From Escherichia phage vB_EcoM-CHD94UKE2, in the sequence record MZ234031.1: DNA of 64,000 bases. One strand, written 5' to 3'. How positions within the stretch are numbered: the first letter of the stretch is position 1; every line of letters begins with the position of its first letter. This document shows, in pieces, positions 50,924 to 51,690 of this stretch. Under the pieces are notes generated by a model that saw nothing but the letters and a program-made list of their open reading frames with translations, searched no databases and was not told the origin of the DNA. The position numbers were made by a program, and so were the translations under genes.

Positions 50924-51412
50924 ATGAATATATTTGAAATGTTGCGTATAGATGAAGGTCTTAGACTCAAAATCTATAAAGACACAGAAGGCTATTACAC
51001 TATTGGCATTGGTCATTTGCTTACTAAAAGTCCATCACTTAGTGTTGCCAAATCTGAATTAGATAAAGCTATTGGACGTAATTGCAATGGTGTAATTACA
51101 AAAGATGAGGCTGAAAAACTCTTTAATCAGGATGTTGATGCTGCTGTTCGCGGAATTCTGAGAAATGCTAAATTAAAACCAGTTTATGATTCTCTTGATG
51201 CTGTTCGCCGCTGTGCATTAATTAATATGGTTTTCCAAATGGGAGAAACCGGCGTAGCAGGATTTACTAATTCTCTGCGTATGCTCCAACAAAAACGCTG
51301 GGATGAAGCAGCAGTAAATCTAGCCCAATCTAAATGGTATCGTCAGACACCTAATCGCGCGAAACGCGTAATCTCAACATTTAAAACAGGAACTTGGAAA
51401 GCGTATATATGA
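50924..51412 (+). CDS. e: endolysin (T4 lysozyme E)
   Basis: 162 aa; [38 protein letters not shown]... near-identical to T4 lysozyme over most of its length, diverging in the last ~30 residues; two late promoter motifs upstream. Confidence 0.98.
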
Positions 51413-51690
51413 AAACATATAGTGAATTTTTATCAGAATCTATTCTTAACGAAGCTACTGACGCATTTGCAACTAAGCTAGGTGCAGCTTTGGTTGAAGC
51501 CGAAAGTCTATTAGCACGTATTTCTGAACTTGCTAGTAAGATAGATACTCGCAAATTTGAGCGCACCAGTGATATCGTTAAGCTTGAAGCCTTGTTGCGT
51601 ATGTGCGACAAACCGGAAGAAATCGCTAAGAACGGCTCGCTGATGAAACAACGTCTTGAAAAATATATTTCAGGCGCTTCAGAAAAATAG
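51409..51690 (+). CDS. internal-protein-like protein with capsid-targeting leader
   Basis: ATG overlaps e stop (ATGA); [10 protein letters not shown]|SILNEAT..., 93 aa; paralog of ORF 43258 (shared KLGxALxEAExL...EIAKNGSxMKxRLE). Confidence 0.7.

Follow-up and report, generated by a model that had tools for sequence, protein, structure and literature searches.

Judged by its sequence, the 93-aa open reading frame whose ATG lies inside the stop codon of the lysozyme gene e (ORF 51409) is a diverged second Ip5-type gene of the T-even family of internal (injected) head proteins. It is carried by the 64,000-nucleotide stretch of Escherichia phage vB_EcoM-CHD94UKE2 (MZ234031.1) analysed here, hereafter the window, which is a Tequatrovirus segment; the 2.7 kb of it that were tested are 100% identical to Escherichia phage vB_EcoM-G3F7. 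The gene, its family, the leader, the two variable loci and the shuffling of these loci are all known already, and no new kind of system is involved. The detail added here, part of which we infer, is that the Ip5-type genes form old alternative subtypes, that the e-linked subtype moves with a piece of the lysozyme gene, and that the ATGA overlap between the two genes derives from a two-frame overlap common to other cargo genes.

T-even phages inject internal proteins that counter host defence, targets being known for Ip1-3 only, and Ip5-type proteins are present in about 500 sequenced coliphages, many of which are candidates for phage therapy. The value of our observations is modest: there are two diverged, largely exclusive subtypes, one of them riding on the tail of the lysozyme gene, and a few phages have both. 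They provide a clean example of how cassette exchange within a coding sequence builds host-range variation, and knowledge of the subtypes guides the choice of constructs and deletion mutants to be set against panels of GmrSD-type restriction systems.

Family assignment of the gene overlapping e

The stop codon of e (TGA, 51410-51412) and the start codon of ORF 51409 (ATG, 51409-51411) share nucleotides within a 4-nt ATGA at 51409-51412, just as the preliminary description had read them. That description had also placed the 93-aa product in one protein family with the 85-aa product of ORF 43258-43515, on the strength of a long common motif, and this assignment is borne out by several comparisons. 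The two proteins are 48% identical over 84 aa (BLASTP, E 7e-25), and both belong to PHROG 3499 ‘internal head protein’ (E 3e-46 for ORF 51409 and 1e-50 for ORF 43258). The motif itself (KLGxAL.EAE.L and EIAKNGS.MK.RLE) consists of invariant columns of the family alignment. The leader of the 93-aa product is of the capsid-targeting sequence (CTS) type proposed for it, matching MKTYQEFIAE at 7 of 10 positions. When the first 15 residues were removed from both proteins, the pairwise alignment remained significant (49% identity over 69 aa, E 1.6e-19), and the similarity of the two ORFs therefore exceeds their shared leader; ORF 51409 is homologous to Ip5 far past this segment.

Comparison with T4 IpII and IpIII, which the same description had named as a check, gave no such similarity: residues 1-11 alone align with ORF 51409 (E about 1e-3), matches after removal of the leaders have E 0.03 or worse, and the PHROG families differ. 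More generally, the alignment of ORF 51409 with T4 IpI, IpII and IpIII and with the other leader-bearing ORFs of the window is confined to the first ~11-20 residues.

Close relatives of the gene are common and the family as a whole is narrow. Counterparts of ORF 51409 with at least 80% identity occur in 238 phage records, the public annotation being ‘ip5’ (VR25 and VR20) or, as in RefSeq records such as that of Lutter, ‘internal head protein’. A word-indexed protein search returned close relatives alone (79-98% identity), a Pfam search gave no match, and a PDB sequence profile search yielded nothing below E 0.01. Searching 1.84 billion representative proteins exhaustively with a profile recovered just about five family clusters, two of them metagenome-only subtypes, and no distant relatives hinting at function. 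One of these metagenomic subtypes, P0007, shares 62% identity with ORF 51409; its gene immediately follows 57A-57B/Acb1.

Table 1 Coordinates in the window of the features discussed, with the basis of each assignment
Feature	Position	Strand	Basis
Canonical Ip5, 85 aa, first IP locus (57A-57B/Acb1-ip-tRNA.4)	43258..43515	+	identity to RB15 Ip5
CTS-bearing internal protein gene next to Ip5, 77 aa	43587..43820	+	phrog_8111 internal virion protein
Pair of TATAAATA boxes (T4-type late promoters) immediately upstream of e, at 50890 and 50903	50890..50910	+	box search
Lysozyme gene e, 162 aa, C-terminus ...TGTWKAYI-stop	50924..51412	+	Pfam Phage_lysozyme
Gaprivervirus-like 3' tail of e, travelling with the Ip5-like gene	51343..51412	+	identity ~93% to VR25
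Shine-Dalgarno-like GGAAAG in W-K codons of e, 7 nt upstream of ATG	51396..51401	+	sequence; putative ribosome-binding role
ATGA start/stop overlap of the Ip5-like gene with e	51409..51412	+	4 nt
Predicted capsid-targeting leader/propeptide, residues 1-15; sites LSE 8-10, LNE 13-15	51409..51453	+	family alignment
e-linked Ip5-family internal head protein gene, 93 aa	51409..51690	+	BLASTP, PHROG match, purifying selection, AlphaFold2 model
Early-promoter-type intergenic cassette upstream of denV; right border of the inserted gene	51691..51748	+	
denV (endonuclease V), downstream neighbour of ORF 51409	51749..52162	+	
IpII-like CTS protein, 86 aa, second IP locus	52169..52429	+	PHROG match and leader
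IpIII homologue, 192 aa, second IP locus	52493..53071	+	PHROG match, leader, alignment

Predicted leader processing and proposed function

The pattern MK[TM][YF]xEF stands at the exact N-terminus of six + strand ORFs of the window, all but one of which are found in T4-type internal-protein contexts. Leaders of this kind direct T4 internal proteins into the scaffolding core, and gp21 trims them after the Glu of (I/L)-x-E (PMC5694885, PMC3012670); ITE and LTE sites cleaved by gp21 are documented for Alt (PMC5694885). The mature form of T4 IpI comprises 76 of 95 residues (PMC3012670), a size that fits cleavage after ITE-19. The segment SILNE/AT of ORF 51409 aligns with STITE/AT of T4 IpI, so that LNE-15 corresponds to ITE-19, and E15 with L or I at P3 is kept in the window copy, VR25, Ip5 and RB51 Ip5, residue 10 being K or V in some. 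We infer that gp21 cuts the product of ORF 51409 after Glu15 and perhaps also after Glu10. Because LNE-15 is both conserved and aligned with the IpI site, the predicted mature protein spans residues 16-93 (78 aa, 8.6 kDa, pI about 8.1). AlphaFold2 models the ORF 51409 product as a three-helix bundle (mean pLDDT 82). A Foldseek search of PDB and BFVD with this model matched only unspecific helical bundles and members of the family, nothing informative.

A leader with an LTE site, of the capsid-targeting type, is also seen in ORF 46661-47224 (+ strand, 187 aa), which starts MKTYAEFLTEAAK and lies outside both canonical IP loci, with the tRNA cluster on one side and the e.x genes on the other. 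This ORF matches PHROG 2280 ‘unknown function’ and occurs in 164 phage records; among 25 sampled rows it is a ‘hypothetical protein’ in every annotated one (one is unannotated). It may be an unrecognised injected protein encoded at a third site.

For ORF 51409, we consider it probable that the product is an Ip5-family injected head protein that is expressed late from e, directed to the capsid by its leader, cleaved by gp21 and injected. Its gene would be transcribed late from the two e promoters, whose transcripts would, as in T4, leave the ribosome-binding site of e open, and translated by ribosomes terminating on e, via the embedded GGAAAG, or both. The N-terminal capsid-targeting sequence would then carry the protein into the prohead scaffolding core, the prohead protease gp21 would trim the leader at the sites given above to leave about 78 aa in a mildly basic three-helix bundle, and the mature protein would be ejected into the host together with the DNA.

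The weakest step concerns what the protein does on arrival. Its most likely job would be to block one particular nuclease by which the host defends itself, from the GmrSD type IV family, an assignment that we make tentatively and would put at somewhat less than an even chance. Ip1, Ip2 and Ip3 inhibit one GmrSD-type restriction enzyme each, a different one in every case, and the same study anticipates counter-defence roles for the remaining proteins of the two Ip loci (PMC12373910). Because the fold search gave no informative match, it is analogy with these proteins that carries the proposed function of Ip5-type proteins; searches of the searchable literature turned up neither proteomic work on virions nor functional studies for them. 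A rather improbable alternative is that the packaged product fills the head as a DNA-associated protein without a specific host target, neutralising or organising the DNA or aiding its ejection, as would suit the mildly basic predicted mature forms (pI 8.1-9.2) and the lysines of T4 internal proteins that touch DNA phosphates in the head (PMC3012670). Such a general role is difficult to reconcile with the small size of the family, its patchy occurrence and its dispensability, T4 and many other T-even phages being without it, and with the position of Ip5 genes in hypervariable loci beside known counter-defence genes such as Acb1; moreover, all three T4 Ips that were tested are specific nuclease inhibitors. 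An injected inhibitor is the preferred, if tentative, reading.

Two variable loci and the origin of the two copies

T4-type phages have two variable IP loci with promoter/stem-loop cassettes (PMC2839356), and the window carries an Ip5-type gene in each: ORF 51409 within the variable e-denV-vs.8 locus and its paralog ORF 43258 in the 57B-tRNA.4 locus. The latter is 100% identical to Ip5 of phage RB15 (GenBank Z35082) and occupies the ipI position of T4, between 57A/57B and tRNA.4. The RB15 record reportedly stems from Repoila et al., whose work of 1994 is said to have described internal-protein polymorphism. Pfam identifies the flanking genes as GP57 (57A) and Acb1 (57B). Gene 57B (42726-43184, + strand), directly upstream of Ip5, gives a full-length match to Acb1, an anti-CBASS nuclease (E 3e-60), although its RefSeq name is ‘RNA ligase’, and on this match the first IP locus abuts a known counter-defence gene.

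The two copies differ in their upstream regions. Ip5 43258 has its own promoter and stem-loop cassette upstream, at 43185-43257, with the -10 region inside an inverted repeat (TGAGGTA...TACCTCA), and an early-promoter cassette of the form GTTTAC...TAnnnT precedes each of Ip5 43258, its neighbour 43587 and ipIII 52493. Both an upstream intergenic region and a promoter-stem-loop cassette of its own are absent from ORF 51409, the ATG of which lies inside the e stop. Such a cassette is found on the denV side of the gene instead, where GTTTAC (51692-51697) is followed after 18 nt by TACTAT (51716-51721) and then by GGAGG. A like cassette comes after the e stop in T4 and RB51 and after the ip5 stop in VR25, and the Lutter RefSeq record annotates the denV-side cassette as a promoter.

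The statement in the preliminary description that T4 has ipIII and ipII at this position is correct, both lying directly downstream of e in that phage. The window also has IpII-like and IpIII genes, located further downstream after denV (52169 and 52493), and since these are kept, ORF 51409 is an additional gene between e and denV and replaces neither. The gene order is nudE-e-ipIII-ipII-denV in T4, e-denV-ip4 in RB51, e-ip5-denV-ip10-ip-ip7 in VR25 and nudE-e-ip5-like-denV-ipII-like-ipIII in the window; the order of the second IP locus thus differs among the window (51409-53071), T4 and RB51 without any inversion. Residues 1-84 of the IpII-like ORF 52169-52429 (+ strand) match PHROG 2667 (IpII), and its residues 61-86 match the short PHROG 35655. 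The Lutter RefSeq record has two small ‘internal head protein’ ORFs that overlap each other in the corresponding stretch, suggesting that close relatives differ here by a frameshift.

The preliminary description held that a single family had been duplicated and dispersed. The single family stands, as the two genes are real paralogs; a duplication and dispersal within this genome is not supported, in view of their divergence and rare co-occurrence. That an IP gene of the 57B locus gave rise, in this phage or its immediate ancestor, to a copy at the e locus, which then diverged, is very unlikely. The paralogy is clear, the copies lie on the same strand 8 kb apart, and both are in loci known to swap IP genes, all of which would fit such an event; yet the copies are 57% identical at the nucleotide level with dS about 1.6 (saturated), and are therefore not recent duplicates. 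Each, moreover, has counterparts with 96-100% identity in hundreds of phages carrying just one of the two. The e-linked type occurs in 238 records, the 57B-locus type in 268 and either in 496, which leaves ~10 with both as against at least 80 expected under independence, a contrast that is inflated by shared ancestry and rests on a descriptive, phylogeny-uncorrected count. Descriptively, a sequenced phage with one Ip5 subtype nearly always lacks the other; those with both include G3F7, Lutter and ime09. The e-linked copy is also nearer to the metagenomic 57B-locus allele P0007 (62%) than to its co-resident paralog (48%), and it is present, together with its e tail, in another genus at 89% identity.

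This other-genus relative, VR25, points to exchange between phages. The Ip5-like genes of the window and VR25 are 86.5% identical at the nucleotide level (dS 0.50, omega 0.14), whereas the flanking nudE, e and denV are just 64-72% identical with saturated dS, values indicating that the Ip5-like gene was horizontally exchanged and is under purifying selection. The lysozyme gene itself is a recombinant mosaic, in which nt 1-375 match RB51/T4 at about 96% identity, while the last ~70 nt are ~75% identical to RB51/T4 and ~93% to VR25, which places a crossover roughly at nt 376-420 of e (window ~51300-51343). Because e is a mosaic of this kind, its tail and the Ip5-like gene move as one unit, which has passed between phage genera, with the crossover inside e; the junction segment is found in 238 records, the same number as carry the ORF 51409 gene. 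No clear switch point marks the right-hand recombination border, the window denV being 60-84% identical to all three comparators. Taken together, the divergence of the copies, the single-copy phages, the affinity to P0007 and the mosaic e indicate that the two copies are old and were joined in one genome by cassette exchange between phages.

The e junction, expression and known systems

The lysozyme genes of VR25 and of Klebsiella phage PWKp16 (Marfavirus) terminate in ...W-K-(V/A)-Y-E-N-L-stop. There, TATGAAAACCTATAA also encodes, in another frame, the M-K-T-Y with which the leader begins, so that the two genes overlap by 14 nt. The window junction differs from this one by the insertion of 4 nt, TATA or (TA)2, which shifts the e frame so that translation stops at the TGA over the ATG and shortens e from 164 to 162 residues. 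T4 e, by comparison with the 162 aa of the window, has 164 aa ending ...AYKNL-stop. Because the 164-residue form ending in Y-(K/E)-N-L is common to T4, RB51, VR25 and PWKp16, the ATGA overlap is probably a derived state that arose from the older 14-nt overlap of the e tail with the leader. In PWKp16 (1104-1887 of its segment), the ..AYENL-stop lysozyme tail overlaps by 14 nt an IpII gene, the product of which is 94% identical to T4 IpII and is not an Ip5. One e-tail/leader junction hence carries different cargo bodies, Ip5-type in VR25 and IpII in PWKp16.

The same tail may contribute to translation. All three phages whose ip gene overlaps e (the window, VR25 and PWKp16) have TGGAAAG, encoding W-K, a short way upstream of the overlap, whereas T4 and RB51, without the overlap, have TGGGAC (W-D) there; in this small sample, the difference suggests an embedded ribosome-binding site of the GGAA type, like those of other ip genes. 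As to transcription, the boxes at 50890 and 50903 are the sole + strand TATAAATA boxes between 44.5 and 58.4 kb, and no usable promoter was found between the e start and the ATG of ORF 51409. The boxes sit within a conserved hairpin, predicted to pair AATACCTTC... with GGAGGTATT, by which the Shine-Dalgarno sequence of e is masked in longer (early) transcripts, in a region nearly identical to T4. Early read-through transcripts of T4 keep this Shine-Dalgarno sequence closed, and lysozyme is translated from late transcripts only. Should ORF 51409 need ribosomes that have completed e, its product would likewise appear late, at the time of prohead assembly.

The pair formed by e and ORF 51409 thus combines a start/stop overlap with the absence of a promoter for the second gene, as coupled gene pairs do, and it is these two features that make translational coupling of ORF 51409 to e, as proposed in the preliminary description, plausible. 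A coupling mechanism enforced by RNA structure was dropped, since folding of the e/ip junction revealed no structure beyond chance (z = 0.23). Independent initiation from the Shine-Dalgarno-like GGAAAG, including on early read-through transcripts, is possible, and the dependence on coupling would then perhaps be partial. As for a lysis accessory protein (holin, antiholin or spanin-like) made along with the endolysin, the tight, overlapping linkage to the lysozyme gene is what such a protein would share, but we reject this reading as extremely improbable given a predicted soluble three-helix bundle without any hydrophobic or transmembrane segment, an N-terminus that is a capsid-targeting leader, closest relatives at the 57B locus away from e, and an IpII gene in its place at the same e junction in PWKp16.

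For an injected internal protein, the junction permits a broader proposal, which we regard as possible but doubtful. The e tail and leader codons would form a conserved, overlapping docking junction for swapped cargo, Ip5-type in Tequatrovirus and Gaprivervirus and IpII in Klebsiella Marfavirus, with the leader serving both as recombination linker and as packaging signal. The cargo would thereby acquire the late-only translational control of lysozyme, and the Ip5 subtypes would represent two alternative alleles, hardly ever found together, of a single counter-defence function. If so, the rare phages with both subtypes, this one among them, would deliver inhibitors of two variants of one host nuclease.

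Among known systems, the nearest are the Ip5 proteins of RB15, T2, T6 and RB51, which like ORF 51409 belong to PHROG 3499 (48-51% identity, E 1e-25 to 1e-27) and share with it the leader type, a similar size and the conserved motifs. ORF 51409 differs from them in a C-terminus longer by 8 residues, in its location at e/denV instead of 57B/tRNA.4, and in overlapping the e stop codon without a promoter/stem-loop cassette of its own. The e-linked ‘ip5’ of VR25 and VR20 (Gaprivervirus) is its ortholog, with 89% amino acid identity, the same e-denV position and the same W-K e tail; there the overlap is of 14 nt, the e codons Y-E-N-L-stop being also read as M-K-T-Y-N, whereas the window has ATGA and an e two residues shorter.

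T4 IpI, IpII and IpIII resemble ORF 51409 in CTS leader type, use of the two loci, small size and dispensability, and their route through the prohead core, gp21 cleavage and injection is presumed to be alike. Past the first ~11-20 residues they have no similarity to it and belong to other PHROG families, and while they inhibit GmrSD enzymes, this activity is extended to Ip5-type proteins by analogy. Finally, the right border of ORF 51409 is an early-promoter cassette of the PeSL or IP-locus type, a proposed mediator of shuffling (Arbiol et al. 2010). The left border of ORF 51409 lies inside the e coding sequence, where there is no cassette and the e tail and the leader share nucleotides.
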